Positions 1,442-59,150 of a stretch of 64,000 bases of DNA are shown piece after piece. Both the position numbers and the translations under genes were made by a program. The notes below the pieces were generated by a model. That model worked only from the letters and a program-made list of their open reading frames with translations, made no database searches and was not told the DNA's origin. Numbering within the stretch: the first letter of the stretch is position 1; each line of letters begins with the position of its first letter. Origin of the DNA: a phage; the NCBI GenBank assembly GCA_018027755.1, contig GCA_018027755.1_4098.1; one strand, given 5' to 3'.

Positions 1442-1801
1442 ATGGCATCTTTATCTGAAATCACTGAACTGAATCCACTGGTAATTAGTACTGTTCAACG
1501 CACCAAGACGTTTTACTTCCGTCCTGCTGATGGATGGAAACGTGGAATGAATGGTGACTATCGAGTACTGGAAGATTCGCTCATCGAGCGTATCAACTCT
1601 GAACTACAGAAGTATGAAGGTGTTAAAGTTGTCCGTTCAACTTCTCGTTATTTTGAGTACTACATTGAGTCTTCAACTGTAAATGAAAACTCATCATTCT
1701 CGGTGGATAACACTGATATTCTTCGCAATGCAGTTGGTTTGCTATGCAACATTGCAGAAGAAATGGGATTAACTATCACCACAATGAGTGAGTTAGAATA
1801 G
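1442..1801 (+). CDS. hypothetical protein (119 aa)
   Basis: ORF track; GAGGAA RBS; promoter upstream. Confidence 0.6.
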   Translation: MASLSEITELNPLVISTVQRTKTFYFRPADGWKRGMNGDYRVLEDSLIERINSELQKYEGVKVVRSTSRYFEYYIESSTVNENSSFSVDNTDILRNAVGLLCNIAEEMGLTITTMSELE

Positions 1802-1871: not shown

Positions 1872-2645
1872 ATGACCCGTCAAGAGAAAGCAATCCAAAT
1901 CGAAAAAAACTTCAATAGCATGATGGCTGCACTGGAATGCCTTCTTGATACACAAGCTAACTCTATCAACTCTCTGATCGTATCAGGTAAAGGTGGTGTT
2001 GGTAAAACTTATAACGTTGACCAACGGTTGCAGAAAGCTGATGATAACTTTGAAATCGACTACAAGAAAATCAGTGGTAAAGTAACTACTTTGGGTCTGT
2101 ACGAAGCACTGTATCGTTCACGTCATGCCGCATCAGTACTGTTACTTGATGACGTTGATATCTTCTCTGACGAGACTAATATTGATTTGCTTAAAGCTGT
2201 GTTGGATACGTCAGAGAAGCGTGTAGTTTCTTACGCGACTTCTGCTAAGTACCTGGAACAGCAGGGTATCCCTAAGCAGTTTGAATTCCGTGGTAAAGTA
2301 ATCTTTCTGACTAACAAAAACCTGTCACAGATTGCTAAAGGTAAAAGCAGCTTAGCACCACACATCGATGCACTGATCACTCGTAGTATCTTTGTTGACC
2401 TGCAACTGTTCACCAACGAAGAAGTGATGATTCACATTGAGAACATCATGAACAAAACTAACATCCTTGAAAACAATGGTGTTAACAAAAATGGTTGTAA
2501 AGCAATCCTGAATTGGATGCTGAACAACGAAGAACGTTTGCGTAGTCCATCACTGCGTATGCCAGTACTGATCGCTGGTTTGTATAATAAATTCCCATAC
2601 GATTGGGAATCAATGGCAGAGAATATGTTCCTTGAGAAAATTTAA
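1872..2645 (+). CDS. P-loop NTPase (deviant Walker A, ParA/MinD-like signature)
   Basis: SGKGGVGKTY Walker A and hydrophobic-LLLDDVD Walker B in translation; GGAGA RBS. Confidence 0.6.
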   Translation: MTRQEKAIQIEKNFNSMMAALECLLDTQANSINSLIVSGKGGVGKTYNVDQRLQKADDNFEIDYKKISGKVTTLGLYEALYRSRHAASVLLLDDVDIFSDETNIDLLKAVLDTSEKRVVSYATSAKYLEQQGIPKQFEFRGKVIFLTNKNLSQIAKGKSSLAPHIDALITRSIFVDLQLFTNEEVMIHIENIMNKTNILENNGVNKNGCKAILNWMLNNEERLRSPSLRMPVLIAGLYNKFPYDWESMAENMFLEKI

Positions 2646-2654
2646 TTACATGTA

Positions 2655-2683
2655 TTGACAGTACTACACTATGGTAGTACTAT
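2655..2683 (+). promoter_or_regulatory. sigma70-like promoter (TTGACA-N17-TACTAT)
   Basis: -35 2655-2660, -10 2678-2683; GGAG RBS then ATG 2713. Confidence 0.45.
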
Positions 2684-2712
2684 AACTTAATATTCACCAC
2701 CGGAGATACGAT

Positions 2713-3051
2713 ATGCTTGAGTTTTTTAATTCAGATACAATGATTAGTATTACTTTGATTTATCTGTTTGGTTTTTTCTTTTATCATGCACTGGTTGTAG
2801 TACTGTGGTATTTTAAAAAGAAAATTGTTTTTAAACTGTATCCAGTAAGGAATTCATCACTAGTTCTTTACACACTAGTTCAAGGTTTGTTTGCAATTGT
2901 TGGTCTTATGGCACACTTAATTTATTGTGCCAATCCTCACTTGAACTCAATCTCACAATATATTGTATTCTTTGGGTTGTTCATTTGGTTAGTTGTATAC
3001 TTAATCCATCTCATTATTCATGGTAGAGATAAAATTCGCGGAGACTTCTAA
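2713..3051 (+). CDS. small polytopic membrane protein, tandem family M
   Basis: ORF track; multiple hydrophobic segments; first of 7 abutting membrane ORFs. Confidence 0.6.
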   Translation: MLEFFNSDTMISITLIYLFGFFFYHALVVVLWYFKKKIVFKLYPVRNSSLVLYTLVQGLFAIVGLMAHLIYCANPHLNSISQYIVFFGLFIWLVVYLIHLIIHGRDKIRGDF

Positions 3052-3398
3052 TGTTTGAAGCTTATCTTGAGTTTTTAAGGAGTAGTTCAGTTGCACATTC
3101 ACTTGCAGGGATTATTCTAACAACTTATGTATCATTTTGGGTAGTTATGTTTCTAGGATGGTATTTTAAACGACAATTCTATAAACGTAATGGTGAAGAT
3201 TTTATGAATTCTGCCATTAATCAATCGTTGTTTGCATCAACATTGATTGCATGTATTGTAGCAACACTCACAGGAAAGGTACTACCAGCTTTTTCCGCAG
3301 TTTACGGCACACTTGGGATGATATGTTTAACTTTTATATTGACCATTAAAATTTGTTGTGTTATGATTGAACTTCGAAATAAGATACCGGAGGAATGA
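3051..3398 (+). CDS. small polytopic membrane protein, tandem family M
   Basis: ORF track; start overlaps upstream stop; hydrophobic segments. Confidence 0.6.
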   Translation: MFEAYLEFLRSSSVAHSLAGIILTTYVSFWVVMFLGWYFKRQFYKRNGEDFMNSAINQSLFASTLIACIVATLTGKVLPAFSAVYGTLGMICLTFILTIKICCVMIELRNKIPEE

Positions 3399-3733
3399 TG
3401 GAGTACTTTATTGATTTACTGCCGTGGTATATGAAAGTTAGTACTTTGTACTATATTATTAGTGCTGGATTCTACTTTCTGATGTGGTTCTTTAAACGAC
3501 CAATTTCAGTATTCATCGCTGATAACATGCTGCAATTAAAATTACACGCATGGTTTGGTATGGCGATGATTATGCCTATTATTCACTACTCAATGATTAG
3601 TAGAGGTTTCCGTTCTAATGGTGAACCAATTGTATTAGTATTCTATTGGGGTTCAACTATTGCATATGTAAGTTTGTTGTTGTTCCCAGTCGTTCATAAG
3701 TTACGTGCTAAAGTTCCTGATGCGAGGTACTAA
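3395..3733 (+). CDS. small polytopic membrane protein, tandem family M
   Basis: ORF track; ATGA overlap with upstream gene; hydrophobic segments. Confidence 0.6.
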   Translation: MMEYFIDLLPWYMKVSTLYYIISAGFYFLMWFFKRPISVFIADNMLQLKLHAWFGMAMIMPIIHYSMISRGFRSNGEPIVLVFYWGSTIAYVSLLLFPVVHKLRAKVPDARY

Positions 3734-4047
3734 TGGATATAGTAACATTGATTTACACGTTGTATTCATTCTATTTCATTATGTGTTGGGTTGGATTTTT
3801 ATTTGTACTCAAGATGTTTGATTATGTTGAAAAACAGATAAAAGAATTTTGTATTCCTTTTATCGGTTCAACCATTATTAGTGTTTCTTGTGTGTATTTT
3901 TTGGTTTTTGATCCACCAGATAACACTGCAATGATTGACTTGATGTTACTACCAACAACTGTTACTTTTTTATGTAGTCTGATGCCGCCGATTAGCCGTG
4001 GACTAACAGAATTTAGACGCAATCAAAAGCGTAAACGAGGGATGTAA
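3733..4047 (+). CDS. small polytopic membrane protein, tandem family M
   Basis: ORF track; C-terminus KRKRG shared with next gene. Confidence 0.6.
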   Translation: MDIVTLIYTLYSFYFIMCWVGFLFVLKMFDYVEKQIKEFCIPFIGSTIISVSCVYFLVFDPPDNTAMIDLMLLPTTVTFLCSLMPPISRGLTEFRRNQKRKRGM

Positions 4048-4415
4048 TGGAAATTGCTCTTATTATCTTAACTGCTATGCTGTTTATTAGTACTGTGGTT
4101 ATAATTGGTAAATTCTTTTGTGTATCATTTTTAGAAACGGTATACGATGAAATTGCTGATGATTATGAATTACAAGCCGGATTTTTCATTACGTATTGGC
4201 TTAGTTTATTTTGTCTAGTCATTGCTTGGATTTTACATATCTTTAAATGGGGTATGGTAGACGGTGATCCTATTATGGCAATTATTGTTCTAGTGTTTGG
4301 TATCCTTGGTGGTGCAGTGCATAATCTAATGGTTATCTGGCAAACTGTTCAATATGTTTTGGTTCCCTATTTCGAAAAGATGCACAGTACAATTAAAAAA
4401 CGTAAACGAGGTTAG
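4047..4415 (+). CDS. small polytopic membrane protein, tandem family M
   Basis: ORF track; C-terminus KKRKRG; hydrophobic segments. Confidence 0.6.
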   Translation: MEIALIILTAMLFISTVVIIGKFFCVSFLETVYDEIADDYELQAGFFITYWLSLFCLVIAWILHIFKWGMVDGDPIMAIIVLVFGILGGAVHNLMVIWQTVQYVLVPYFEKMHSTIKKRKRG

Positions 4416-4416
4416 T

Positions 4417-4779
4417 ATGAACGGGATAGAATTATCTTTCGTTGGTCAATTACTAGTAATGGCGTATACATTTATCTTCTCACTGAATGCATTCGTGTGC
4501 ATTGGGAAGTACTTCCATAAGCGACCATTATCAAATATATATGATGTAATCCAAAAGAGATATAGTCCAGCATATACTGTGTTGGGTACAGTATTCAATT
4601 TTGGTTTTATTGTATTAATAATTGGACTGTTCACATCCTCTTTGAATACAATAACCTTCGGTCTTATGATATGTTCATTGGTATTAGCCGTAATTATATG
4701 TTGTTTAGTACTGCACCTTGTGGTACTATTGTATATAAAGATCTCTGAAATCCACCAACGTTTGGGTATGAGGAAATAA
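4417..4779 (+). CDS. small polytopic membrane protein, tandem family M
   Basis: Track ORF 4354..4779 trimmed to ATG 4417 after CGAGG RBS. Confidence 0.55.
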   Translation: MNGIELSFVGQLLVMAYTFIFSLNAFVCIGKYFHKRPLSNIYDVIQKRYSPAYTVLGTVFNFGFIVLIIGLFTSSLNTITFGLMICSLVLAVIICCLVLHLVVLLYIKISEIHQRLGMRK

Positions 4780-4780
4780 T

Positions 4781-5152
4781 ATGAGTTACCGTGAGATATT
4801 TTCCATTATTTCAATTATTATGTTCAGTACTGGAACACTGGTATGGTTATTATACTTCTTCTGTATTAATCCAGTGTATAATATGTTATGTAATATTAAA
4901 TCAAGTGCCGGATATATCACTTTTATGGTCTTTATGGGATATTATTGTCTAAGCATTTTAGGTGTTGTTTTGGTTGTTATATTTGATGTGGGACCAAATA
5001 GTGATGGTATGGAAATACATGAATTAATAACCATGTTTGGATGTATGATACCAACAGCACTACTGTTTGTAGCTACTTGTAGTGGATTGATAAAATTATA
5101 TAATTATTTAAAATCCATTCATAATTCCATTCATAATAAGCGTATGTCATAA
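4781..5152 (+). CDS. small polytopic membrane protein, tandem family M
   Basis: ORF track; GAGGAA RBS; hydrophobic segments. Confidence 0.6.
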   Translation: MSYREIFSIISIIMFSTGTLVWLLYFFCINPVYNMLCNIKSSAGYITFMVFMGYYCLSILGVVLVVIFDVGPNSDGMEIHELITMFGCMIPTALLFVATCSGLIKLYNYLKSIHNSIHNKRMS

Positions 5153-5158
5153 TAAAAA

Positions 5159-5182
5159 ATCCAGTACTATTAAGTACTGGAT
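5159..5182 (+). other. perfect stem-loop ATCCAGTAC-N6-GTACTGGAT
   Basis: 9-bp inverted repeat built from two AGTACT hexamers between genes; no T-run. Confidence 0.35.
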
Positions 5183-5194
5183 GTATAAGGAGTT

Positions 5195-5857
5195 ATGATG
5201 AAATCAAAATTAGGTTTGTTTTATAAAAACTATTTTGTTAAACAACGTAAATTTATAAAAAAATATTTCTCTGGCGAGAAGTCTAGTCCTATAATCTTTA
5301 AAAGACCAAGTTATAATACTTACTTAGCTGGTGCTAAACAGTCTAAGAAATTTATTACTCTTTTACATAAAAACAAAATTAAAGCTTCTTATGTTGAAAC
5401 GAGAAGAAACTCATCAATAACTCCTGGTGATTTTATTGAGTACGGATGTTTCAATATTAAGTACAATGATAATACATACTTTATGGATATTGATTGTAAT
5501 ACATCCAATCTTTTTAACATTGTAGTAAATCCATTAAAACAATATAATGTTTATGGTGATTCTATTATCAAATTAATCAAAAACAAAGATAGCTTTGATT
5601 TTGAAATAAATGTTTTAGATGATAATTTTGACGAAGTACCAGTAAACCCTGAAATCTGTGATATTTTAAACAGTTTAAAAGGTAGTACCTACAATATATC
5701 ATCTGATTTAATGTTTCAGTACTCATTAATCCATAAAGATATTGAAAAGTATATTGAATGCTCCAGAATTTTGAATTTTCTCTATGATGAATTTAAAAAG
5801 AGTTCTAAAATAACTGCATACACTTTGTACAATATTCCTAAAATGGTGAATCTTTAA
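5195..5857 (+). CDS. hypothetical protein (220 aa), basic N-terminus
   Basis: ORF track; AAGGAG RBS. Confidence 0.6.
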   Translation: MMKSKLGLFYKNYFVKQRKFIKKYFSGEKSSPIIFKRPSYNTYLAGAKQSKKFITLLHKNKIKASYVETRRNSSITPGDFIEYGCFNIKYNDNTYFMDIDCNTSNLFNIVVNPLKQYNVYGDSIIKLIKNKDSFDFEINVLDDNFDEVPVNPEICDILNSLKGSTYNISSDLMFQYSLIHKDIEKYIECSRILNFLYDEFKKSSKITAYTLYNIPKMVNL

Positions 5858-6261
5858 CAAATACAGTACTGGCAACTCCACCGTCTGTAATATATTGTCC
5901 AGTACTGTAAATTTGTATACCATCGGTTAAGTAAGTTCTGTATAAAGTTGCTGTAACATATACGTTATTCATATTCATCTCTATTGGTAGTACACATTTG
6001 GTATAGGCCGACACATCTGTTTGTGTACCTATACCCAATTGACCTGCGTTATCGCCTGTGTTATTACCAGTTGCGTAAACACCCAATGAAGTTATAATAT
6101 GATTAGAAAAATATGAATAACCCAAACTCTTGAGATTCTCTACTGTACAACGTACCATCTGACATAAGGGCAAAAACTGTCGTATCAGATGAAGCTATTT
6201 TTGTAACAGAAGGTTGTATGTTCTTTTTTGATGATGTGATAATTCTTCGAAAGGGTAGCAT
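5838..6261 (-). pseudogene. decayed MLPF-leader RCC1-like paralog (frameshifted, truncated)
   Basis: ATG 6261 after GGAGG gives MLPFRRIITSS..DGTLYSRE then stop after about 53 codons; GQLGIG-containing continuation is in another frame (track ORF 5838..6173). Confidence 0.55.
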
Positions 6262-6353
6262 TGTATCCTCCAAATGTAAATCGTTATTATATTTAGGACA
6301 AAAAAATGCCAGTACAAGGCACTGGCATAAAATCTAAGCAGAAGGCATATCCT

Positions 6354-6464
6354 TCATCTTAATAAATGAAAATTGTGTACCAGTATTTGTGGTTCCAATT
6401 TCTTTATTTCAGGAAGAGTTGGTTTAATATTTCCGTACTTTAACATTCTTCCAAAAGGTAACAT
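6354..6464 (-). pseudogene. MLPF-leader stub (36 codons)
   Basis: Canonical cassette upstream; MLPFGRMLKYGNIKP.. terminates after 36 codons. Confidence 0.5.
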
Positions 6465-6539
6465 AAATCCCTCCTTTATTCATTATACTATATTTAATAC
6501 AAAAAAAAAGAAAAGCCAGTATCAAGTACTGGCCCTATA
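6465..6539 (-). promoter_or_regulatory. array cassette boundary (terminator hairpin + TATAAT + AAGGAGG)
   Basis: Minus-strand reading: GCCAGTA..TACTGGC hairpin, T-run, TATAGTATAATGAATAAAGGAGG, ATG. Confidence 0.55.
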
Positions 6540-7889
6540 TTATTGTAAAGGTATTTCAGTCAAGGTACTATATGTTGTGCCATTATACACACCACGCCAG
6601 TATAATTTACCTTCAGTACTAACCACTAATAATCCATATGTTGTAAACCCAAGAGTACCACCAACATACATAGCATCTTTGATTTTAATACCAATGTCTT
6701 CATATGTAAATGAAGCGACTGCTCCCGCTTGCCATGAAGGACTAGCATAGTAATCACTATAAACACCATGTGCTTTATATATTGATGTTGTTCCGGGTTC
6801 AAAAATTACAGTTCCACAGTAGTTCATTCGTATTTTGGTACTGGATGAAGTTGGTACATTTATACCTACATCATCTTTAATCCCTGTAGTTAGGACGTTA
6901 AAACCACCCGCTACACGGTTGACGTCATTCGCACCGATTAGAAACATACCAACGTTGTAGCCCATATAATACACACTACTTGTACCATTCCAGAAAGAAA
7001 AACCACCACCATTACCACAGCGATATAGTTGTGAATTTGAGCAGTACATCATGCCTTCGTTTGTTGCATCAAAATCATCTGCTGTTCCGATTACAGCCAC
7101 TGTAGTCCACGTTTTAATCACTTGGTTTGTACTAGCTGGTTTTTGTATACCATATCGTATATTATATCCCTTACCTACGATTGTACCATCTTCTAATTTG
7201 GCATAAAGTACAGGTCTATTACCAACAAAATACACATTATTATGTGACATGTCTATTGTGCATCTTAATGAAACTGCTTTTTGTGTCAATTGATTATCTT
7301 TAGTAAAAGAAGTAAAGTAGTAATCTGATGTGGAGTTGTTTATTAAACCTTGAATCGACAAACCCATATACCAGATTTCACCATTAGTGTTCAATGCTGC
7401 CAAAATACAACTATATTTTGAAGTGTATGCTGGGGTTAATGATGTTGCTGGACCTTTATCATATCCACCACAGAATACCATTTCCACAACTTCACCTACG
7501 TTAGAAAAATAAGAAGATACATTTATAAAACCATTTGTTATAAAAGGTGCTGTAGTTATACTTGAATGTGTGAATATTCCATTTGCATATACACCACAAA
7601 AATGATATGAACCATCATTATCTTTAACTATTATTCCATTTGATAGTAGCCAAAAATTGTTTACATTTTTTCGTACTAATTCAATTCCTGTACCATTGGT
7701 TGGTGTTATACCAAAAGAAACATATTTTGTTTGACCAATACCATATAAATTTCCATTTGATGCTAATATTGCACCAAACCAATTACCACCACCATTCCTA
7801 TCATGACCCATACCAATGGAGTCGAATTTCTTCACAGTAGAGGCTTCAACTTTATTTCCGTACTTAACCATTCTCGCAAAAGGTAACAT
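6540..7889 (-). CDS. MLPF-leader RCC1-like beta-propeller repeat protein (449 aa)
   Basis: ORF track; leader MLPFARMVKYGN; G/T/S/N/Y-rich with RCC1-like G-x-N-x-x-G-Q/E/K-L/F-G-x-G repeats. Confidence 0.75.
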   Translation of the reverse strand: MLPFARMVKYGNKVEASTVKKFDSIGMGHDRNGGGNWFGAILASNGNLYGIGQTKYVSFGITPTNGTGIELVRKNVNNFWLLSNGIIVKDNDGSYHFCGVYANGIFTHSSITTAPFITNGFINVSSYFSNVGEVVEMVFCGGYDKGPATSLTPAYTSKYSCILAALNTNGEIWYMGLSIQGLINNSTSDYYFTSFTKDNQLTQKAVSLRCTIDMSHNNVYFVGNRPVLYAKLEDGTIVGKGYNIRYGIQKPASTNQVIKTWTTVAVIGTADDFDATNEGMMYCSNSQLYRCGNGGGFSFWNGTSSVYYMGYNVGMFLIGANDVNRVAGGFNVLTTGIKDDVGINVPTSSSTKIRMNYCGTVIFEPGTTSIYKAHGVYSDYYASPSWQAGAVASFTYEDIGIKIKDAMYVGGTLGFTTYGLLVVSTEGKLYWRGVYNGTTYSTLTEIPLQ

Positions 7890-7959
7890 AATTCCCTCCT
7901 TTATTCATTATACTATATTTAACCAAAAAGAAAAGCCAGTACAGAGTACTGGCATTGTA
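7890..7959 (-). promoter_or_regulatory. array cassette boundary (terminator hairpin + TATAAT + AAGGAGG)
   Basis: Same conserved cassette as at 6465. Confidence 0.55.
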
Positions 7960-9093
7960 TTAAGGTTTATTTTTATAATTAATTTCTACATAGTTACGTT
8001 GTGTTCCAGTATATCCTGGAACATTCCCTATATTTCCATTACCTGCACCAAACAGACGTTCTCCGACTGCAAAATATGTCCCATAGAAACAACCATCAAA
8101 CACAGGAACATCATTATAATTTGATATGTAATTATCCATTGAATCCATTCTAGTGTATGCAGTCAGAGTTACATTTGTACCTATACCATATGCACCATAA
8201 GGGTTAGTACCAGCAACATAATACCCAGTGGGTGTACATATTACTGGTGAATTTGCCCCTGATCTCGTGTGGATAAATCTAAATGTACCTTCAGGTACTG
8301 GTGCTTCTTTACTGAATAATGTTGTAGCTACTACTGGGTAATCAATACCATAACTATTACCACTCAACCACGTTTTACCATCACTATCTTTGAATAATGA
8401 ACAGGATTGTGTGCATCCGAACAGATTCAAATTGGTTACATTTGGAAATTTACTAATTTGTGTATATACCAGAACTGTGGTTGCGGCAGCACTACCAAGT
8501 TGTCCACGACCATTATCACCCGCACTGTACATGTACCCATCGGTCTTTAATATTATACTAGCGTTTCCTAAAATATCAAAATCAACAACATCCGTTTGTG
8601 TTAATGTAGCTATAGGATAACGAAAATTCACTGCCTCACCAGTACCAAATTGACAATTGGTGTTTACCCCACATCCATATAAGTTGCCGTTTTGCATTAA
8701 TATAAACAAACCTGTTGTCATTTTAATTTTCTTAATATTAAGAATATCTATATCTTGGAATATGTGTGTTACATTTACAAATGTGGTTGAGTTAACAGTA
8801 CTTGAACCATAATAAGAACCGTTCCCGCTACCAAAGAATTCATCGCCTTTTCTGTACATTGCACATAGACTGCCACCCCATACATCATCAACTCCAGTGT
8901 CAATTTGAATAACTGAAGTAACACTAGTTGTTGCACCAGTGCCAAGTTCACCACCTGAATTGAATCCAAAACCATACAAATCTCCACTTTCGGTGAGCAC
9001 CAAAACACTGTTATTGGTTGTGCATGAAATCTTTTTGATATTATTAGATGGTCTTTTATTTCCGTACTTAACCATTCTTGCAAAAGGTAACAT
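7960..9093 (-). CDS. MLPF-leader RCC1-like beta-propeller repeat protein (377 aa)
   Basis: ORF track; leader MLPFARMVKYGN; SGDLYGFGFNSGGELGTG-type repeats. Confidence 0.75.
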   Translation of the reverse strand: MLPFARMVKYGNKRPSNNIKKISCTTNNSVLVLTESGDLYGFGFNSGGELGTGATTSVTSVIQIDTGVDDVWGGSLCAMYRKGDEFFGSGNGSYYGSSTVNSTTFVNVTHIFQDIDILNIKKIKMTTGLFILMQNGNLYGCGVNTNCQFGTGEAVNFRYPIATLTQTDVVDFDILGNASIILKTDGYMYSAGDNGRGQLGSAAATTVLVYTQISKFPNVTNLNLFGCTQSCSLFKDSDGKTWLSGNSYGIDYPVVATTLFSKEAPVPEGTFRFIHTRSGANSPVICTPTGYYVAGTNPYGAYGIGTNVTLTAYTRMDSMDNYISNYNDVPVFDGCFYGTYFAVGERLFGAGNGNIGNVPGYTGTQRNYVEINYKNKP

Positions 9094-9166
9094 GATTTCT
9101 CTCCTTTATCCATTATACTATATTTAATACAAATAAGAAAGCCAGTACAGAGTACTGGCTTTTACA
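9094..9166 (-). promoter_or_regulatory. array cassette boundary
   Basis: Conserved hairpin/T-run/TATAAT/AAGGAG cassette. Confidence 0.55.
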
Positions 9167-10357
9167 TTACAATTGTCTAGGTGTATCCAGAACATATCTA
9201 TTTGTTTTAGGACCACCATCATCATAAGTTCCGGTTGAATATATATTTTTCATATCAGCAGTTAGGAAAGTACGTAACGACCCTCGATATATTTTTATTT
9301 TATCATACATAGAATATGTTATTTCTGACGGCAATGGACATGCAGTAAATTTACCAATGGTAACATTAGAACCAACACCCAATGAACCAGCATAACTACT
9401 CGCATTTAAACCTGTTGCATATACACCAGTACTCGTAACTAGTATACTAGATTGTGCTGGGTATCCAGTATGGATTGAATAATAAGTACCGGGTGGTAAT
9501 GTAGCACTATTATTTCCTAAAACTCCATTAACAGTGCTAGATGTAGTTTTATTTCCCCATGCCCCATTATTAGCGTTACCACCTACTAGGAACTGACGTG
9601 CTCCTGTACTTGGATTCTCTACTAAAGCACTGACAGCACCAAATGAACAAACAGTATATTGTAATGTTTTTGTATATGTGGTACTTGGCTTATACAAAGT
9701 ATATTCATTAAATGGTGTCCATGTGGTACTAGTACTTATGCCAGATGTACTACCACCAATATATAAATTATTTTGTGTATCAAAAAACATTGCACAGTAA
9801 TTTGTTGACTGTATTTGTGCAATATCTACATCTGGTGTTACCGCTTTAACAAATGAACCATCTGATATTTGATAAGTAGTTCCTGTACCATCTGCGAATT
9901 GTCTAGCACTATTCCACCCTGTACTCCATATTGTATTATTATCCATTAAGAAAGTAAACCATGTAGTACCTGCATACATCTGTTTAATTGAAGTACTTGA
10001 ACTTTGTTTGTACAATTTTTCAATATATTGGTTATAACTTAAAAATGATGTAGTACTAGTTTCTAAACCAATATGACTACCATATCCACAATAAAAATAA
10101 TTTAAGTCCTTATCTTGAACTAACAAAGTTCCTTGTGTCATCCAGCAATCTTTGACATTTTCTCTAATTAATGTCCACGACCTTACTGCATTATTATTTC
10201 CTCTACCAAACTTCCCAAAACTATTACTGCCTCGTGCGTATAGTTGACCGTCGGTATAAAGTACAACAACCTCAGTATCAGTTGGTATTATTTTCTTAAT
10301 TTGTAGTGGTACAGGCACAATATTCCCATAATTCATCATTCTTGCAAAAGGTAACAT
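9167..10357 (-). CDS. MLPF-leader RCC1-like beta-propeller repeat protein (396 aa)
   Basis: ORF track; leader MLPFARMMNYGN; body near-identical to 13612..14802. Confidence 0.75.
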   Translation of the reverse strand: MLPFARMMNYGNIVPVPLQIKKIIPTDTEVVVLYTDGQLYARGSNSFGKFGRGNNNAVRSWTLIRENVKDCWMTQGTLLVQDKDLNYFYCGYGSHIGLETSTTSFLSYNQYIEKLYKQSSSTSIKQMYAGTTWFTFLMDNNTIWSTGWNSARQFADGTGTTYQISDGSFVKAVTPDVDIAQIQSTNYCAMFFDTQNNLYIGGSTSGISTSTTWTPFNEYTLYKPSTTYTKTLQYTVCSFGAVSALVENPSTGARQFLVGGNANNGAWGNKTTSSTVNGVLGNNSATLPPGTYYSIHTGYPAQSSILVTSTGVYATGLNASSYAGSLGVGSNVTIGKFTACPLPSEITYSMYDKIKIYRGSLRTFLTADMKNIYSTGTYDDGGPKTNRYVLDTPRQL

Positions 10358-10436
10358 AATTCCCCTCCTTATTCATTATACTATATTTAATACAAATAAG
10401 AAAGCCAGTATCAAGTACTGGCATAGTTTTATAGTA
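10358..10436 (-). promoter_or_regulatory. array cassette boundary
   Basis: Conserved cassette. Confidence 0.55.
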
Positions 10437-11546
10437 TCATTTCGGCATTGTAATTGCAGACCATGAGTTCGTGGTAATAGGACCTGGCACATACAAAAAA
10501 GAACCACAAGCATAAATTTGATTATTACCATCAAATACTATACTAAAATGTGCACATGTGTATAATGCTGATTTTTCTGGGTTGTAATTATCTAAAGTTA
10601 GTGTATTGGTGAATCTACTCAAACCACCACCAGAACCATTTCTACCAAATTCACCAGTACTATATATCTTTCCTTCGGTTGTTGCGTACATATTAACATA
10701 TGAAGTTGCACTTGATTTTGATATTTTATGTATCTTACTATCAATAGTAGTGGAGTTAAATGCAAATGGATATACTTGTGTGTTCGTTGTAATACCGTTA
10801 CCAAGTTGACCAACATACTGCCAACCTGCGTTGTATATATTGCTGGCTGAATAAGCAAGAGTACCAGTACTGTTACCACCAAATAGTTTAACACTTGTTA
10901 ACCTTCTTACTAGTGTAGTATACTGTCCGGGACTTACGCCAAGTGAACCATACCCACTGCTCCCGCAACCGAGAAGTTCATTATTTGATGTTAATATTAA
11001 TGTGTTATTCTGTGTACCCAATATATCAAGGACTGTATTAGCTCCGGTATTAACAACTGAAACAAAAGTACTCTGAGCCGTGGAATACCCACCACCGAGT
11101 GAATAGTTACCATTCATGCCTCTACCATAAACAATCGAACCACTAGCATCAACGTAGTGCATTGTATCTGCACCAATTGATATCATTTTAATATTAGATA
11201 TATGTGGAAATGAAGAAGTAACATTCAAACCACCCAACGGAATCATAGTATTTCCTGTGCCTAATTGTGTGGTAACTCCATGCATTATGAATTCTTCACC
11301 CTTGAGATAAAGAATATTGTACGCACCAGCCCATGCATCAGTAACACCTTCTGAAATTAATATCCAAGTATTTCTTGTTGCTGTATTTTCAACGTTTAAC
11401 TGCAAATACGTATTAACCCCACAACCATAAAGTGAGCCATCGCCATAGAGGACGTACAAATTATCAAGACCGCACAGTACTTTCTTTATCTTTGGAGCTT
11501 CAGGTGCAATATTTCCGTACTTAACCATTCTTGCAAAAGGTAACAT
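10437..11546 (-). CDS. MLPF-leader RCC1-like beta-propeller repeat protein (369 aa)
   Basis: Track ORF trimmed to MLPF ATG; AGGAGTG RBS only 8 nt after upstream gene stop. Confidence 0.7.
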   Translation of the reverse strand: MLPFARMVKYGNIAPEAPKIKKVLCGLDNLYVLYGDGSLYGCGVNTYLQLNVENTATRNTWILISEGVTDAWAGAYNILYLKGEEFIMHGVTTQLGTGNTMIPLGGLNVTSSFPHISNIKMISIGADTMHYVDASGSIVYGRGMNGNYSLGGGYSTAQSTFVSVVNTGANTVLDILGTQNNTLILTSNNELLGCGSSGYGSLGVSPGQYTTLVRRLTSVKLFGGNSTGTLAYSASNIYNAGWQYVGQLGNGITTNTQVYPFAFNSTTIDSKIHKISKSSATSYVNMYATTEGKIYSTGEFGRNGSGGGLSRFTNTLTLDNYNPEKSALYTCAHFSIVFDGNNQIYACGSFLYVPGPITTNSWSAITMPK

Positions 11547-11554
11547 ATTCACTC

Positions 11555-12730
11555 CTATTCTGGTAAAATCATTTTCTTCATTTTAACTTGTTGTGTACCT
11601 GGACTCTGTTCCTGAAACATAGACCCGTTACCACACCAGTACACCTCATTAGTACCCACTAACGCGTATAACACACCAGAACCACCTTGTACTGAAAATG
11701 CATTAACATCTGGTGCAACATCCATATCCTCATATTGTACCTGGTGGTAATAAGATCTTTCTGATGCAGTAGTAACAGGCCAACCAAGAGGAACACCACT
11801 ACCACATGTATAAAGTTTACCATTCTGTGTCATTGCCATTATAAAATAATTCAAACTGTGATTGTTCATCGACCCAGCATCTGGTATAATACCACTAATT
11901 GCAGGAGTGGTACTAAATGGACTCATGATAATAGTAGTGTCGCCATACCCTATTCCTAAACAATAATCAGTGTTTTTTCCAGCAGTATATACATTAATCT
12001 TATTTCTATTGGATGTAAGTACTGAAGTGGTTTCAGGAGTACATGAAATACCAATAACTGTTCCAGATATATCAGTACTTACCGTAAATGTCGAAAGTTT
12101 AGAAGAACCTGACCCTAAGTTGTAACTTGCGTTATTCCCACATCTGTAGTATTGATTATTTTTAACATAATGGAAAGCATCCCCAGCCGTTGTTCCCGCA
12201 ATTATAGTAACTCCAGTAGCAATCTGAATTGGCGTTGTTTTTCTACCAGTAACACCCAATGCACCTCCTGTATTACGCCCAATCCCATATAAGTCCCCAT
12301 TACTTAACAAAATCAATAACGCACCATTTGATGCAGTAGTTTCAGTAGCAGCTATATCTACTACTGTAGTAAGTGCTGGTATTGTAGACAATAAAGATGT
12401 GATATTAGTCCATCCAGGAACTGGTGATGCAGATACACCGACATAACCCATTTGACCAGCTAAGTAAAATTCTCCGTCAGTCGTAAGTATAATTGTTGCT
12501 GCAAAGAAGCACCAAACATTAGAAACTTTATATGGACACTGTACCCACCCATTTTGCACATACGCAGTGCTATTATTTCCTAGCATATAGTGTGCACCAT
12601 TTCCACGTAGATATAAGTTACCACTATCAAATAACATACCCATATGTGATGGAGATGTACTTATCTTCATAACACCTGAAGGTGCTGGAACTCTGTTTCC
12701 GTACTTAACCATTCTTGCAAAAGGTAACAT
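11555..12730 (-). CDS. MLPF-leader RCC1-like beta-propeller repeat protein (391 aa)
   Basis: Track ORF trimmed to MLPF ATG after AAGGAGG; leader MLPFARMVKYGN. Confidence 0.7.
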   Translation of the reverse strand: MLPFARMVKYGNRVPAPSGVMKISTSPSHMGMLFDSGNLYLRGNGAHYMLGNNSTAYVQNGWVQCPYKVSNVWCFFAATIILTTDGEFYLAGQMGYVGVSASPVPGWTNITSLLSTIPALTTVVDIAATETTASNGALLILLSNGDLYGIGRNTGGALGVTGRKTTPIQIATGVTIIAGTTAGDAFHYVKNNQYYRCGNNASYNLGSGSSKLSTFTVSTDISGTVIGISCTPETTSVLTSNRNKINVYTAGKNTDYCLGIGYGDTTIIMSPFSTTPAISGIIPDAGSMNNHSLNYFIMAMTQNGKLYTCGSGVPLGWPVTTASERSYYHQVQYEDMDVAPDVNAFSVQGGSGVLYALVGTNEVYWCGNGSMFQEQSPGTQQVKMKKMILPE

Positions 12731-12801
12731 ATTTCCTCCTTTATTCATTATACTATATTTAATACAAAAAGAAATGCCAGTATCAAGTACTGGCCTATAT
12801 T
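12731..12801 (-). promoter_or_regulatory. array cassette boundary
   Basis: Conserved cassette. Confidence 0.55.
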
Positions 12802-13539
12802 TTAGACTGAATTGTTAGGATAATATCTCCCACGTCCCCATATTATTCGCACAGCACCACCACCAGCAGCCGTATAAGAAAAATTATCCCATATACTACC
12901 ACCACCACCATACATCTTACCAGCACCACCACTACCAGCACCACCATTATATGAACCATCGTATCTACCGCCAATACCATTAGCACCTTGAACAATGATA
13001 CCAGTACCACCACCCGTACCAATGAACGAGGTATTATAGAATGCACCACCACCACCGCCGCCGCCAGCACCATTTTCACCAGTGATTGCATCTCCGTTAC
13101 CACCTTTACCAGTGTAGCCACCAGCACCACCACCAATGACTGCACCACCACTTACACCAGCGTTGCCCCCATTACCACCACCATCATTAATAGCGTTAGC
13201 AGCTTTCCCACCTAGTCCACCAACCCTATATTCACCAGTGAAGCTAACACATAGTTTTTCAGTTCCACGATATAAACCGTTTTCAACTGCTGTAGTAGTG
13301 TTGGGATGTGTAAGAGAAACACTTAAGTACTCACCACTAGTAACCGGAATATTATTACGCCACGATAAGCCGCCGCCAGCACCACGTTGACCACCCGGCG
13401 AAATAACACATACTGATATTTCGGTAACGCTAGCAGGAACTGTAAATTGTGTTGTTCCTATTGTCGTGATTAATTGTTCACCATGTGGCTTATATTCAAT
13501 TTCATTCCCGTACTTAATCATTCTTCCAAAAGGTAACAT
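12802..13539 (-). CDS. MLPF-leader glycine-rich protein (245 aa)
   Basis: ORF track; leader MLPFGRMIKYGN but body is Gly-rich (runs of GGG/GxG) and unlike the RCC1-like paralogs. Confidence 0.7.
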   Translation of the reverse strand: MLPFGRMIKYGNEIEYKPHGEQLITTIGTTQFTVPASVTEISVCVISPGGQRGAGGGLSWRNNIPVTSGEYLSVSLTHPNTTTAVENGLYRGTEKLCVSFTGEYRVGGLGGKAANAINDGGGNGGNAGVSGGAVIGGGAGGYTGKGGNGDAITGENGAGGGGGGGAFYNTSFIGTGGGTGIIVQGANGIGGRYDGSYNGGAGSGGAGKMYGGGGSIWDNFSYTAAGGGAVRIIWGRGRYYPNNSV

Positions 13540-13611
13540 AATTCCCTCCTTTATTCATTATAATATATTTAATACAAAAAAGAAAAGCCAGTACAAAGTA
13601 CTGGCATTATA
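13540..13611 (-). promoter_or_regulatory. array cassette boundary
   Basis: Conserved cassette. Confidence 0.55.
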
Positions 13612-14802
13612 TTATAACTGTCTTGGAGTATCCAGTACATATCTATTTGTACGAGGACCACCATCATCATCAGTTCCTGTTGAATATATATTTTTCATAT
13701 CAGCAGTTAGGAAAGTACGATACGAACCGCGATATATTTTAATTTTATCATACATAGAATATGTTATTTCTGACGGCAATGGACATGCAGTAAATTTACC
13801 AATGGTAACATTAGAACCAACACCCAATGTGCCAGCATAACTACTCGCATTTAAACCAGTTGCATATACACCTGCACTCGTAACTAGTATACTAGATTGT
13901 GTTGGGTATCCAGTATGAATTGAATACAAAGTACCGGGTGGTAAGGTTGTACTATTATTTCCTAAAACTCCATTAACAGTGCTAGATGTAGTTTTATTTC
14001 CCCATGCTCCATTATTAGCTAATCCACCAACTAGAAACTGACGTGCTCCTGTATTTGGATTCTCCACCAAAGCACTGACTGAACCCATTGAGCATCCAGT
14101 GTATTGTAACGTTTTTGTGTATGTGGTACTTGGCTGATATAAAGTATATTCATTATATAAAGTCCATGTAGTGCTGGAACTTATACCGGATGTACCACCA
14201 CCAATATATAAATTATTTTGTGTATCAAAAAACATTGCACAGCTATTTGTTGACATTATTTGTGCAATATCAACATCTGGTGTTACAGCTTTAACAAATG
14301 AACCATCGGTTATTTGTTGAGTTTTTCCAGTACCATCAGCGAATTGTTTAGCCCCACTCCACCCAGTACTCCATATTGTATTATTATCCATTAAGAAAGT
14401 AAACCATGTAGTACCTGCATACATCTGTTTAATTGAAGTACTTGAACTTTGTTTGTACAATTTTTCAATATATTGGTTATAACTTAAAAATGATGTAGTA
14501 CTAGTTTCTAAACCAATATAACCACCATAGCCACAATAAAAATAATTTAAGTCCTTATCTTGTACTAACAAAGTTCCTTCTGACATCCAACAATCGTTAA
14601 CGTTTTCTCTAATTAATGTCCATGTTCTTAATGCAGTGTTGTTTCCTCTCCCAAACTTCCCAAAACTATTATTGCCTCGTGCGTATAGTTGACCATCAGT
14701 ATAAAGTACAACAACATCACTATTGATTGGTATTATTTTCTTAATTTGAAGAGGCTCAGGTGTAATATTTCCATAATCAAACATTCTAACAAAAGGTAAC
14801 AT
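13612..14802 (-). CDS. MLPF-leader RCC1-like beta-propeller repeat protein (396 aa)
   Basis: Track ORF 13612..14859 trimmed to MLPF ATG; leader MLPFVRMFDYGN; body near-identical to 9167..10357. Confidence 0.75.
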   Translation of the reverse strand: MLPFVRMFDYGNITPEPLQIKKIIPINSDVVVLYTDGQLYARGNNSFGKFGRGNNTALRTWTLIRENVNDCWMSEGTLLVQDKDLNYFYCGYGGYIGLETSTTSFLSYNQYIEKLYKQSSSTSIKQMYAGTTWFTFLMDNNTIWSTGWSGAKQFADGTGKTQQITDGSFVKAVTPDVDIAQIMSTNSCAMFFDTQNNLYIGGGTSGISSSTTWTLYNEYTLYQPSTTYTKTLQYTGCSMGSVSALVENPNTGARQFLVGGLANNGAWGNKTTSSTVNGVLGNNSTTLPPGTLYSIHTGYPTQSSILVTSAGVYATGLNASSYAGTLGVGSNVTIGKFTACPLPSEITYSMYDKIKIYRGSYRTFLTADMKNIYSTGTDDDGGPRTNRYVLDTPRQL

Positions 14803-27840: not shown

Positions 27841-27926
27841 TAGAATTTATTTAAAGTACTATCATTTTTTTGCGATAGTACTTTATAATAGTGTTTTATT
27901 CATACACCAACGATAAGGGCAACAGC

Positions 27927-28193
27927 ATGAATATTAAGTATTTTGCGACGCGTGAACAAGCTCGGATCGCCGCTCGCCAGGACGGGGCAACGTTTAAAGA
28001 TATGGGCGTACAATCGGAACGTGGTAAACGTTGGGCCATTGTAAAGCGTAGTACCGCCAGATCATTACAGTACTGGTTAGCGGCCTTAAAAAGTCCCGAT
28101 AGTGTATCGCGTCGAGTGGTAGAAATAAAGCTCGACCGAAAGGGCAACCGCGTGACCGTGTACCGTACTAAAAAGATTGCAGTACTTGAATAA
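27927..28193 (+). CDS. hypothetical protein (88 aa), paralog of 40612..41016
   Basis: Track ORF trimmed to ATG 27927; KYFATREQARIAAR and DRKGNRVTVY shared with 40612..41016. Confidence 0.6.
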   Translation: MNIKYFATREQARIAARQDGATFKDMGVQSERGKRWAIVKRSTARSLQYWLAALKSPDSVSRRVVEIKLDRKGNRVTVYRTKKIAVLE

Positions 28194-33676: not shown

Positions 33677-34021
33677 ATGGCTAATATCAACACTATCGCA
33701 AAACAAAATATCAACCTGTCTTCTGTTGAAGTTGTACATATTGCCGCTCGGCGTTGGTTCCAGGCTTCATATGGTAACACTTATTTCTCTTTAAGTGTAG
33801 ACGTAGAAATTGATGGTAATTTTATTGAAGTAGTAAACGTGCCGTTCCAATATGGATACGGGGATCACTTTGACACTGTAGCAATGGAAGAATTTAGCAA
33901 GGTTATTAATATGGAAGATAAAGAGTTTTTACGCGGTTCTTATCTTTCCCGTTTTTGCCGTGACAATAATATCACTGTTTACAGTTCGGTAACTGATGTT
34001 AAACGCAAAAAAGATCTTTAA
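33677..34021 (+). CDS. hypothetical protein (114 aa), paralog of 40202..40525
   Basis: ORF track; shared GNTY, YGYG and C-terminal DVKRKKD. Confidence 0.65.
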   Translation: MANINTIAKQNINLSSVEVVHIAARRWFQASYGNTYFSLSVDVEIDGNFIEVVNVPFQYGYGDHFDTVAMEEFSKVINMEDKEFLRGSYLSRFCRDNNITVYSSVTDVKRKKDL

Positions 34022-40201: not shown

Positions 40202-40525
40202 ATGGCTATGATCCTTACCCAGAAAGTGGAATTGAAAATTGTAACCTCCTTTGACATTAAAGTTAATCGCTGGACTGATCGGAACGGCAATACTTACCAC
40301 TCTTGCTACGTGTCTGCATTGATTGGTGATCGTTGGGAAGACCTGGGACACGAAACTTTTACATACGGTTACGGTACGCAAGGCGAATACACGGGCTTGG
40401 AGATCATTAAAGAAACCGTTATAGGTTTCAACCCGAAAGAAAAAGTTATTCACCGCATCGAAAAAGAGATTAACAAAGAAATAACAGTTCGCTACTACGA
40501 TGTAAAACGTAAGAAAGACATGTAA
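40202..40525 (+). CDS. hypothetical protein (107 aa), paralog of 33677..34021
   Basis: ORF track; C-terminal DVKRKKDM. Confidence 0.65.
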   Translation: MAMILTQKVELKIVTSFDIKVNRWTDRNGNTYHSCYVSALIGDRWEDLGHETFTYGYGTQGEYTGLEIIKETVIGFNPKEKVIHRIEKEINKEITVRYYDVKRKKDM

Positions 40526-40611: not shown

Positions 40612-41016
40612 ATGTATACCATGATTACTAAATTCTACGCTACCCGTGAAGCTGCCCGTATTGTTGCACGCGAGGAAGGAGCAGCATTTAAAGACATGGG
40701 AACGACAGCACCGAAAGGTCAACGCTGGGCCGTACAGTTCAAAGAAATCTCTGATATTGTGAATTCACCTGAGCCAGTACTGACAGCAGCAGAACTAAAA
40801 CGAGCGGATATGCTGGCGGCAATACTTGACGCTCAAGATGAATTTATCGCTGATTCTGATATCAAAGTACAGGTAAACCACACCGCATGGACTCACGCGG
40901 ATCACCTGGCAAACCTTAAGCGTCCAAGTGAACTGATTCGCAACCAGAAAGAGATCCGACACGACCGTAAGGGTAATCGTGTAACAGTATACAGTAAACG
41001 CCGCCAGGTTATCTAA
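40612..41016 (+). CDS. hypothetical protein (134 aa), paralog of 27927..28193
   Basis: ORF track; shared N- and C-terminal blocks with extra central insert. Confidence 0.6.
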   Translation: MYTMITKFYATREAARIVAREEGAAFKDMGTTAPKGQRWAVQFKEISDIVNSPEPVLTAAELKRADMLAAILDAQDEFIADSDIKVQVNHTAWTHADHLANLKRPSELIRNQKEIRHDRKGNRVTVYSKRRQVI

Positions 41017-52509: not shown

Positions 52510-52752
52510 ATGAAAGTACTGACAGAACTAGAAATGTATCATAGATTTAATAAGTACTATCATTTACTTAAGCCTATACAGAGGATTAAATGTCCATTTG
52601 AAGAGAAACAGGTTTTAATCTATGAGCACAAGTTCTTTGTATCATTAGGTACAGATCAACAAGAGTACTATTTGACGTTGTACTTGATTACATTAATAGA
52701 TTTAATTTACTATAAAACCAAACAAGCTAATAAAGAGAAATATGAAAACTAA
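52510..52752 (+). CDS. small protein, tandem family B
   Basis: Track ORF trimmed to MKVLTELEMY; LGTDQQEYYL. Confidence 0.6.
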   Translation: MKVLTELEMYHRFNKYYHLLKPIQRIKCPFEEKQVLIYEHKFFVSLGTDQQEYYLTLYLITLIDLIYYKTKQANKEKYEN

Positions 52753-53086
52753 TATACAACTCAAGGTATATAAATCATTTGAACATACATATATCAAAAG
52801 TAGTCTATGTAGAGATGTAATGGATTACAAGGGTAAGCCATTCACAATTACTTATGATTCTTATGTTGATGATTTATATATATCATTTGTTAATTACGAA
52901 AATAAAATATACAAGCACGTTGATATTAAAGATTTAAGTACTTTATCTGAAGAGGAATACTTTCAGGAATCATTAGTATGGGATTTAGAGTTTCCTATGC
53001 CATTAGTACATAAGATGATAGTACTAATGAAAGAATCTAAACAGGAGCCTAATGGTGATTATGAAGAACACACAGTTGAGTATTAA
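52742..53086 (+). CDS. tandem family C protein (acidic-aromatic-FQ-x-SL motif)
   Basis: ORF track; SEEEYFQESLVWD. Confidence 0.6.
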   Translation: MKTNIQLKVYKSFEHTYIKSSLCRDVMDYKGKPFTITYDSYVDDLYISFVNYENKIYKHVDIKDLSTLSEEEYFQESLVWDLEFPMPLVHKMIVLMKESKQEPNGDYEEHTVEY

Positions 53087-53456: not shown

Positions 53457-53457
53457 C

Positions 53458-53486
53458 TTGACAGTACTTTTCATTACTGATATAGT
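53458..53486 (+). promoter_or_regulatory. sigma70-like promoter (TTGACA-N17-TATAGT)
   Basis: -35 53458-53463, -10 53481-53486, before ATG 53516. Confidence 0.5.
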
Positions 53487-53515
53487 ACACTAACGTTAAT
53501 CATAGGGTAAAAATT

Positions 53516-57414: not shown

Positions 57415-57439
57415 GATATGGGCTTTTTTCGTTTTGGTA

Positions 57440-57468: not shown

Positions 57469-57496
57469 GTGTAATCATTTTAAAGGAGAACATATA

Positions 57497-59149: not shown

Positions 59150-59150
59150 T

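Follow-up and report, generated by a model that had tools for sequence, protein, structure and literature searches.

The RCC1 beta-propeller comprises about 7 repeats. Gene decay in tandem multigene families is described by the birth-and-death model, and programmed +1 frameshifting at hungry or rare codons is known from E. coli prfB, from yeast Ty3 and from the structural genes of the Listeria phage PSA. Among the Asteriusviruses, an array of RCC1-like genes carries the GenBank labels “regulator of chromosome condensation” or “putative DNA condensation protein”; eight array proteins have been detected by mass spectrometry in phAPEC6 virions, and phAPEC6 gp010 has been detected in virions by 1 peptide (PMC7247149 Table 1).

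Three groups of described genes come closest to the two broken array units analyzed here, which we call remnant 1 and the stub. The “RCC1-like” pair 121Q gp235 and gp234 (PBI_121Q_235/234; PBECO4 gp296; SHEFM2K M2K_0263/0264) is the ortholog of remnant 1 and resembles it in being the last array unit, in having the same leader and the same 20-nt overlap with a convergent gene, and in showing 97-98% nucleotide identity over 424 nt. It differs in being full length (1153 nt), whereas the window, by which we mean the whole 64,000-nt stretch of phage DNA that was analyzed, is without 729 nt of it, including the site of a frame break. The 106-aa “putative DNA condensation protein” of SP27 (EO157G_2130) and JP4 (JP4_CDS0214) represents the deletion allele of remnant 1 itself, to which it is 98-99.5% identical; the databases annotate its C-terminal ORF alone, which here is the tail of a gutted gene. 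The group formed by phAPEC6 gp010, EO157G_2140, G17_00081 and M2K_0262 matches the stub in the first 71 nt, the last 60 nt and the downstream terminator, and is unlike it in being intact, while the window and two metagenome contigs are without 1039 internal nucleotides. A literature search found no description of the remnants or of the frame break in the parent gene.

From the comparison with these genes, we conclude that both features are very probably non-functional remnants (pseudogenes) at the transcriptionally downstream end of the array, each with one internal deletion. Each has homology to a gene that is full length elsewhere, a disrupted reading frame and a lesion that is present in independent sequences. 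The original prediction, made from the letters of the window, had described them as decayed cassette units, and the comparison bears this out: the retained parts are 96-99.5% identical to full-length relatives, from which they differ by one clean deletion each, of 729 and 1039 nt, respectively.

The MLPF cassette array and its host phage

The window comes from an Asteriusvirus, a 121Q/PBECO4-like jumbo coliphage, and a megablast search with positions 5100..8000 matched exclusively Asteriusvirus genomes (121Q, PBECO4, SP27, phAPEC6, G17 and others). Fourteen MLPF starts were found on the minus strand, from 6261 to 20856, with none elsewhere in the 64 kb. They define an array of paralogous genes that runs on the minus strand from 20856 down to 5838, in which 12 of the 14 units are intact (245-449 aa) and 2 are broken. 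RCC1-type Pfam families were matched by three of the five intact units that were scanned, as well as by the parent genes of both remnants. No tRNA genes were found within the 64-kb window.

A conserved cassette precedes 10 of the 14 units and consists of a GCCAGTAC-loop-GTACTGGC hairpin followed by a T-run, the motif gtattaaatatagtataatgaataaaggagg and the start ATGTTACCTTTT; across all 14 units, the first ~12 residues of the protein are the best-conserved part. Terminator-like sites number 24 in the array against 6.5 +/- 2.4 in shuffled sequences. A sigma-70 promoter scan gave no enrichment (84 sites, 84.7 expected), and the conserved leader motif was obtained by direct alignment of the leaders, not by that scan. 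The cassette signals that had been predicted for the two broken units were recovered, in that both lie on the minus strand, begin with MLPF and are preceded by a GCCAGT..ACTGGC hairpin with a T-run and an AAGGAGG-type ribosome binding site, the stub having the consensus leader and remnant 1 a diverged leader of its own with a GGAGG. The 42-aa “DNA condensation” ORFs (121Q gp237 type; 10296..10424 in the window) annotated in relatives were considered as extra stubs and rejected, as they are out-of-frame readings across a cassette leader.

The content of the array varies greatly between Asteriusviruses, even between close phages, and the nearest relatives of the window switch at about 6394-6420, from SP27-like on the left (99.5%) to EC.P1/Turkey3/ph0011-like on the right (90-96%). 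One paralog pair elsewhere in the array is 88.9% identical. For the parent of either remnant, the nearest intact paralog in the window has 36% identity, so neither gene loss is backed up by a close paralog.

A 729-nt internal deletion in remnant 1

Remnant 1 occupies 5838..6261 on the minus strand (424 nt, ~141 codons). From the ATG at 6261 (minus strand), frame 0 reads MLPFRRIITSSKKNIQPSVTKIASSDTTVFALMSDGTLYSRESQEFGLFIFF, that is, MLPFRRIITSS...DGTLYSRESQEFGLFIFF, up to a stop at 6103..6105, and the +1 frame reads ...LGYSYFSNHIITSLGVYATGNNTGDNAGQLGIG...VFVKDSPF to its stop at 5838 and carries ...GYSYFSNHIITSLGVYATGNNTGDNAGQLGIG...; the two ORFs overlap by ~30 codons. These coordinates and translations, with the frame-0 stop, the RCC1-like continuation in the +1 frame and the 36-codon stub at 6354..6464, agree with the original prediction.

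The unit is the ortholog of 121Q gp235 and gp234 minus exactly 729 internal nucleotides. BLAST splits it into two pieces in 121Q, SHEFM2K, PBECO4, UB and SD-15; in the 121Q locus (L001), window positions 6121..6315 correspond to 3571..3765 and window positions 5800..6131 to 2521..2853, at 97.9% identity. This is matched by the multiple alignment, in which the window has a single gap of exactly 729 columns (columns 201-929). The N-terminal part (6121..6261, minus strand) holds the first 47 parent codons in frame 0, with the MLPF start. The C-terminal part (5838..6120, minus strand) holds the last 93 parent codons and the stop, in the +1 frame relative to ATG 6261; it is 97-99% identical to 121Q L001 2559..2842 and its relatives and is open to the native stop, and the frame-0 ORF enters it out of frame and ends there. 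In 121Q the left flank of the deleted segment reads CAAGAGTTTGGG followed by CAAATG and the right flank AGCAGTGTGGG followed by TTATTC, and the window reads CAAGAGTTTGGG followed by TTATTC. The flanks of the two sequences therefore place the crossover in the TGGG at 6121..6124 (minus strand), where the microhomology is 4 nt if perfect and 7 of 8 nt if counted as AGT(T/G)TGGG. What has been lost is 243 of ~383 codons (~48-290), which is most of the repeat body, leaving the first and last repeat regions.

Upstream of the unit, its own leader (GGAGG, then ATG) and a hairpin occupy 6262..6328 (minus strand). The leader, which has a close match in 121Q-type phages, is a diverged cassette variant native to its own gene lineage, and the hairpin at 6306..6328 (GCCAGT..ACTGGC with a T-run) doubles as the terminator of the stub. 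The protein N-terminus has lost the family motif (MLPFRRIITSS vs MLPF.RM.KYGN) and has gained the changes G5R and G42E.

At the other end lies a convergent gene of 220 aa (5195..5857, plus strand), for which no Pfam family was found and which shares its final 20 nt with the native 3' end of remnant 1. The same 20-nt overlap is present in 121Q (gp233/gp234), SHEFM2K, PBECO4, UB and the metagenome locus L020. The unit had been predicted to be truncated to about 140 codons where it meets this gene, and of this the size holds (~141 codons), but the overlapping end is native and the loss is internal; the mechanism is internal deletion and not 3' truncation.

Orthologous loci in related phages, named as a check in the original prediction, supplied both full-length relatives and shared deletions. 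Among the 21 phage records that hold this gene, it is full length in 10, carries the 729-nt deletion in 7 (SP27, phAPEC6, JP4, G17, Sharanji, ECO103 4-12-1 and EC22.5-2, from different laboratories) and has other internal deletions in 4, the Salmonella SD phages. Both the 729-nt and the 1039-nt deletion are carried by the metagenome contigs OERM01000102.1, which is colinear with window positions 4092..13569 at 99.44% identity, and OERV01002943.1 (99.27%). Exact searches for either junction in IMG/VR gave no match, and IMG/VR apparently holds 121Q alone from this group. The C-terminal ORF, annotated as a 106-aa gene in some GenBank records, remains uninterrupted in the window, in SP27, phAPEC6 and JP4, and in the two metagenome contigs. 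In G17 it has an additional TCA>TAA stop two codons past the junction, in the frame of the C-terminal part, together with deletions of 12 and 6 nt; Sharanji probably has the same further lesions, because its BLAST statistics are identical.

A 1039-nt out-of-frame deletion in the stub

The ORF at 6354..6464 (minus strand) translates as MLPFGRMLKYGNIKPTLPEIKKLEPQILVHNFHLLR before a stop, giving 36 aa with an MLPF start, and is the ortholog of phAPEC6 gp010 and SP27 EO157G_2140 (389 aa) with a 1039-nt out-of-frame deletion. Aligned to SP27, phAPEC6, SHEFM2K and G17, the stub shows one gap of 1039 columns between matching flanks. Its 5' end (6394..6464, minus strand) corresponds to the first 71 nt of the parent (~24 codons, MLPFGRMLKYGNIKPTLPEIKKL-), and window positions 6394..6476 match the beginning of the 389-aa gene and its leader at 96% identity. 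Its 3' end (6334..6393, minus strand) corresponds to the last 60 nt of the parent, now out of frame, with the native stop TAG at 6334..6336 and the native-frame translation TNTGTQFSFIKMKDMPSA; the wider segment 6300..6393 matches these 60 nt plus the intergenic region. At the junction at 6394, AAATTGGA is joined to ACCACAAAT with 1 nt of microhomology. As 1039 is 1 modulo 3, the ORF passes from 24 native codons into 12 out-of-frame ones before it meets a stop. The leader and hairpin of the stub were located at 6465..6536 (minus strand) by leader alignment and terminator scan. The leader, with the promoter-like TAAATATAGTATAAT and AAGGAGG, is a perfect consensus (gtattaaatatagtataatgaataaaggagg..ATGTTACCTTTT), and the hairpin at 6512..6536 (GCCAGT..ACTGGC with a T-run) is terminator-like and belongs to the upstream 449-aa unit.

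The 389-aa parent is intact in SP27 (EO157G_2140), phAPEC6 (gp010), G17 (G17_00081), SHEFM2K (M2K_0262) and JP4. No phage record spans the junction of the stub, and the metagenome contigs OERM01000102.1 and OERV01002943.1 do; the other two of four metagenome matches to the 22-nt junction (L013 and L014) were rejected as chance matches of 27-29 nt. The three known copies of the stub are identical across the compared ORF region. The gene of the stub was gutted more recently than that of remnant 1, within the narrow lineage of the window itself.

The frame break in the parent gene of remnant 1

All 10 full-length copies of the parent gene in phage records are 1153 nt long (1 modulo 3) and frameshifted, and they are annotated as a 74-aa and a 298-aa ORF, frame 0 covering the first ~72 codons and frame +1 the remainder. 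An intact ortholog of this parent occurs in metagenomes (P0001/L017, 382 aa, 76% identity), and a scan of genome contigs with the parent protein turned up no relatives. Alignment locates the extra base, the intact gene reading TGG TGT GGC and the frameshifted copies TGG-G-TKC-GG. An inserted C, which would give W-V-G, was also considered; the alignment with intact orthologs favours an extra G after TGG as the most parsimonious placement. Because 729 is a multiple of 3, the deletion preserved the frame offset and did not create it. The offset predates the deletion, since it is inherited from the one-base insertion in the parent gene, and because the insertion site lies inside the deleted segment, the window keeps both frames while the break point itself is gone.

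The insertion is common to 121Q-type and PBECO4-type copies, which show 34 synonymous and 6 nonsynonymous differences when read in the correct frames, and the extra base is flanked on both sides by differences at distances of 1-16 nt. Between these types, pN/pS is 0 in the frame-0 part and 0.06 in the frame +1 part, as against 1.2-1.5 in wrong-frame controls. A third, syntenic and much more divergent copy, the metagenome locus L020 (Logan ERR11558579), is likewise divided into ORFs of 74 and 298 aa and shares with the others its leader, its overlap with the convergent gene and the extra G, at 75.3% nucleotide identity to 121Q, with dS of 1.3-1.7 and dN/dS of 0.06-0.19 in the N-terminal part, in the 14 codons between the shift site and an internal ATG, and in the C-terminal part. 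A neutral simulation with the 284 observed differences yielded an expectation of 14.3 stops, where none is present, and 0 of 5000 runs was stop-free. The explanation that the parental frameshift was a simple inactivating lesion preceding the deletion is contradicted by these dN/dS and stop-codon analyses. Patch recombination cannot have transferred the base, since sequence differences flank the extra G at 3 nt upstream and at 2 nt downstream.

In a fourth lineage (L021), the ORF is clean apart from a one-base insertion of another kind, GAC-C-GGG at codon ~36. With either insertion, the frame-0 codon at the shift site is CGG, which in-frame counting finds 0 times among the 4550 codons of the 12 array genes that are intact in the window; the raw trinucleotide count was uninformative. 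A 3-sequence consensus fold at the parental shift site revealed no convincing conserved structure.

The parent gene thus has a frame break conserved across diverged lineages and purifying selection in both frames, and since the extra base is common to lineages ~75% identical in which both frames are under such selection, the parent may use +1 recoding. The break is therefore an old one that the gene tolerates while under purifying selection. It may reflect +1 recoding at a hungry CGG, of the kind known from Ty3, or a functional split gene, with recurrent insertion at a hot spot a less likely candidate; codon conservation between the shift site and the internal Met, over few sites, would mildly favour recoding. 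The likeness to prfB, Ty3 and PSA concerns the parent gene only and lies in the conserved one-base break, the purifying selection and the frame-0 CGG. It differs from these systems in that neither a canonical slippery codon nor an adjacent stop nor a Shine-Dalgarno-like stimulator could be recognised in the parent, and in that the window has lost the shift site. The two-frame layout of remnant 1 might be the fossil of an ancient, maintained +1 recoding site (UGG GUK CGG) in its parent, a possibility that we hold tentatively and with more doubt than confidence.

Selection and family membership after the deletion

Derived changes in the copies with the 729-nt deletion are 9 nonsynonymous or nonsense vs 5 synonymous, as compared with 6 vs 34 in full-length copies (Fisher P = 0.001), and the ratio in the deletion carriers is compatible with neutrality (P = 0.34). 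Selection on remnant 1 was relaxed after the deletion, by a test in which the numbers are small (14 derived changes in all, mostly on the G17 branch) and in which polymorphisms common to deletion and full-length haplotypes point to recombination, which blurs the assignment of changes to branches.

Family membership was assessed with the Pfam families PF00415 (RCC1), PF13540 (RCC1_2) and PF25390 (RCC1-like domain) at their gathering cutoffs. The repaired parent of remnant 1 passes for RCC1 (32.5, cutoff 21.7) and RCC1_2 (28.9, cutoff 22), whereas the conceptual 140-aa fusion encoded by remnant 1 stays under every cutoff (20.1 bits vs 22 for RCC1_2; 19.3 vs 150 for PF25390). With the fusion below the cutoffs and the repaired parent above them, remnant 1 is RCC1-derived and no longer qualifies as a member of the family. 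A complete multi-bladed propeller is found in neither unit, given the 243 of ~383 codons missing from remnant 1 and the 24 native codons kept by the stub.

Origin of the remnants and rival explanations

The layout of both units is best explained by the following course of events. An old single-base insertion (TGG-G-TKC-GG) would have split the 1153-nt parent into a frame-0 and a frame +1 part, and a 729-nt deletion between short imperfect repeats (AGT-T/G-TGGG) would then have taken out the repeat body together with the old insertion site, leaving a unit in which the first 47 codons, in frame 0, run into the last 93, in frame +1. In the stub, a 1039-nt deletion with 1 nt of microhomology would have fused codon 24 to the last 60 nt out of frame, leaving a 36-codon ORF between an intact promoter-like leader and an intact terminator. 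The copies of the remnant 1 gene form a decay series that leads from the intact gene (L017), via the one-base break under selection (121Q, PBECO4, L020) and the 729-nt deletion (window, SP27, phAPEC6, JP4), to further lesions in the form of a nonsense codon and indels (G17 and probably Sharanji). This reading is carried by the orthology of the pieces, the sizes and junctions of the deletions, their presence in independent sequences and the relaxed constraint after the first deletion. We infer that neither remnant has a function and that the deletions occurred through replication slippage or illegitimate recombination. Plausible expression signals survive in both remnants, and short products may well be made.

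The units had also been read as a sign of birth-and-death turnover. Loss is supported by the deletions, while birth is supported indirectly, by the 88.9% paralog pair. The array is like the families described by this model in its diverged tandem paralogs, its one recent duplicate pair and its members lost by deletion, and it differs in belonging to a virulent jumbo phage, in which DNA without a function should soon be lost, and in the small size of its remnants (424 and 131 nt).

Other origins were weighed against the same evidence. Programmed +1 frameshifting within remnant 1 of the window, for example at the T5 run at 6107..6111, would yield a functional ~140-aa protein and had been put forward in the original prediction as an alternative to decay; it would account for the ~30-codon overlap of the two frames and for a UUUUU directly before the frame-0 stop, and the parent gene does seem tolerant of a +1 frame break. 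We nevertheless consider it extremely improbable, because the two frames meet in a deletion scar, the deletion has taken the parental shift site (UGG GUK CGG) with it, and the U5 run before the frame-0 UAA, the only candidate slippery site near the junction, is plain parental coding sequence (GYSYFSNH) that full-length copies contain too. The nonsense codon of G17 in the frame of the C-terminal part, derived substitutions that look neutral, the lack of an Rfam match at the junction, an unremarkable RNA folding z-score there (+1.06) and a fusion that would retain ~2 of ~7 RCC1 repeats and fall below all Pfam cutoffs tell against it as well. That a collapsed repeat or a homopolymer error lies behind the breaks has a negligible chance. 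The array is repetitive, with conserved leaders and N-termini at which assemblers can err, yet neither junction is located in conserved repeat sequence, the 729-nt deletion is found in 7 phage genomes from different laboratories, and both deletions recur in two separate metagenome assemblies that differ by 0.6-0.7% from the window. Assembly error is excluded on these grounds, and so is a sequencing correction that would restore a single long frame, the outcome that would have overturned the reading as decayed units.

The remnants might also be kept for active short products, namely MLPF peptides of 36 and 52 aa or the C-terminal ORF of 106-111 aa, which we regard as very unlikely. It is conceivable that MLPF peptides serve as free copies of a conserved targeting or assembly motif, and an N-terminal signal for incorporation can be imagined as well, given the eight virion-associated array proteins of phAPEC6. 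Leaders, Shine-Dalgarno sequences and terminators have stayed intact, conservation across all 14 units is highest in the first ~12 residues, and most carriers have an open C-terminal ORF; against this stand the N-terminus of remnant 1 without the family motif and with G5R and G42E, the interruption of the C-terminal ORF in G17 and Sharanji, and the lack of any detectable selection signal. The retention of the stub, all known copies of which belong to a single narrow lineage, is uninformative. Scars of cassette exchange, in which recombination between the conserved leaders or N-termini of different phages left partial units, would fit the very different array content among Asteriusviruses, the switch of nearest relatives at ~6394-6420 and the polymorphisms common to the deletion and full-length classes, which indicate recombination. 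Such an exchange is highly improbable as the source of the two units, however, in that both ends of each remnant come from one parent gene in native order, orientation and flanks, and the junctions fall in unit-specific sequence with 1-4 nt of perfect homology, outside the ~75-nt leader and the first 12 codons.

Implications for the RCC1-like array

Two small ORFs that pipelines annotate as “DNA condensation protein” or “hypothetical protein” are the debris of larger genes, and for one gene they provide a clean, datable decay series that is useful for annotating 350-kb genomes. The RCC1-like virion-protein array of Asteriusvirus loses members by internal deletion, which adds to the differences in array content. 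In itself the finding matters little, as it is ordinary decay in a known gene family of a known phage genus. If the layout of remnant 1 were indeed the fossil of a recoding site, one Asteriusvirus RCC1-like virion-protein gene would be expressed by programmed +1 frameshifting at a hungry CGG, with the C skipped and the following GGN read, as in Ty3, and the lineage of the window would have destroyed the gene by deleting the site. The frame break in the parent gene, which lies outside the window, is a testable candidate for +1 recoding in a jumbo phage.

Frame break and deletions in the parent gene of remnant 1

Full-length orthologs of remnant 1 (5838..6261, minus strand) carry one extra base (TGG-G-TKC-GG), which is common to lineages only 75% identical in DNA. 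This base was located at 3487..3500 on the minus strand of the 121Q locus (L001), at the same position in the PBECO4 locus (L005), and at about 1519..1533 in the diverged metagenome locus L020. Locus L021, from an additional diverged lineage, has another single-base insertion instead, at about 2806..2815, likewise yielding frame-0 CGG. Both frames of the full-length orthologs are under strong purifying selection (dN/dS 0.06-0.19), with 0 stops observed versus 14 expected. Judged from these sequences, the extra-base site is a candidate for either +1 recoding or a functional split gene.

In Salmonella phages SD-1, SD-2, SD-6, and SD-15 (records OR699181-OR699183 and OR699188; locus L009), coverage of the same parent gene differs from phage to phage (94%, 83%, 64%, and 55% among the four), and the SD-15 copy contains a 68-nt internal deletion. 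These differences look like independent further deletions at this one locus.

Composition of the cassette array and its surroundings

Among the units of the array of MLPF-start cassettes, the minus-strand pair 9167..10357 and 13612..14802 shares 88.9% protein identity, whereas every other pair of units shares 23-36%. From the sequence comparison, this pair looks like the product of a recent duplication inside the array or of an exchange into it. The 245-aa unit at 12802..13539 (minus) combines the MLPF N-terminus and the cassette leader with a glycine-rich body that is not RCC1-like, and it returned no Pfam match; the array of Turkey3 has, at the equivalent position, an annotated gene of 245 aa that may be its counterpart. 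Adjoining the 36-codon stub (6354..6464), the 449-aa MLPF unit at 6540..7889 (minus) matched no Pfam family at E <= 0.01 and shows 90-96% DNA identity with units of ph0011, EC.P1, and Turkey3. The nearest relatives of the window switch at about 6394-6420, being SP27-like to the left and EC.P1/Turkey3-like to the right.

Relatives also carry 42-aa ORFs with the database label "putative DNA condensation protein" (121Q gp237, SHEFM2K M2K_0261, and JP4_CDS0218), matched in the window at 10296..10424 (minus). These ORFs begin in the terminator hairpin and pass out of frame through both the cassette leader and the MLPF start, so that they probably reflect an artefact of annotation. The CCAGTAC..GTACTGG type of palindromic hairpin seen in the array terminators also occurs at 5159..5182, in the gap that separates gene 4781..5152 from gene 5195..5857 (both plus strand), and the motif is thus used beyond the array and on both strands.

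Possible further paralog series in the window

Directly upstream of the convergent gene (5195..5857), seven small plus-strand ORFs in tandem (2713..5152; 104-141 aa), with hydrophobic, membrane-protein-like sequences, look like another paralog series. In a long plus-strand run of about 20 ORFs (52742..63647; 103-224 aa), the members have in common a short, acidic motif with the pattern (S/E)EEE(Y/L)FQ(Q/Y)SL(V/I), and they seem to form another large family of paralogs, the second in the window. Moreover, some plus-strand ORF pairs (27891..28193 with 40612..41016, and 33677..34021 with 40202..40525) have N-terminal or C-terminal motifs in common, for example ..FYATREQARIAARQDGATFKDMG.. versus ..FYATREAARIVAREEGAAFKDMG.. 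and ..DVKRKKDL versus ..DVKRKKDM, which points to further duplicated modules.
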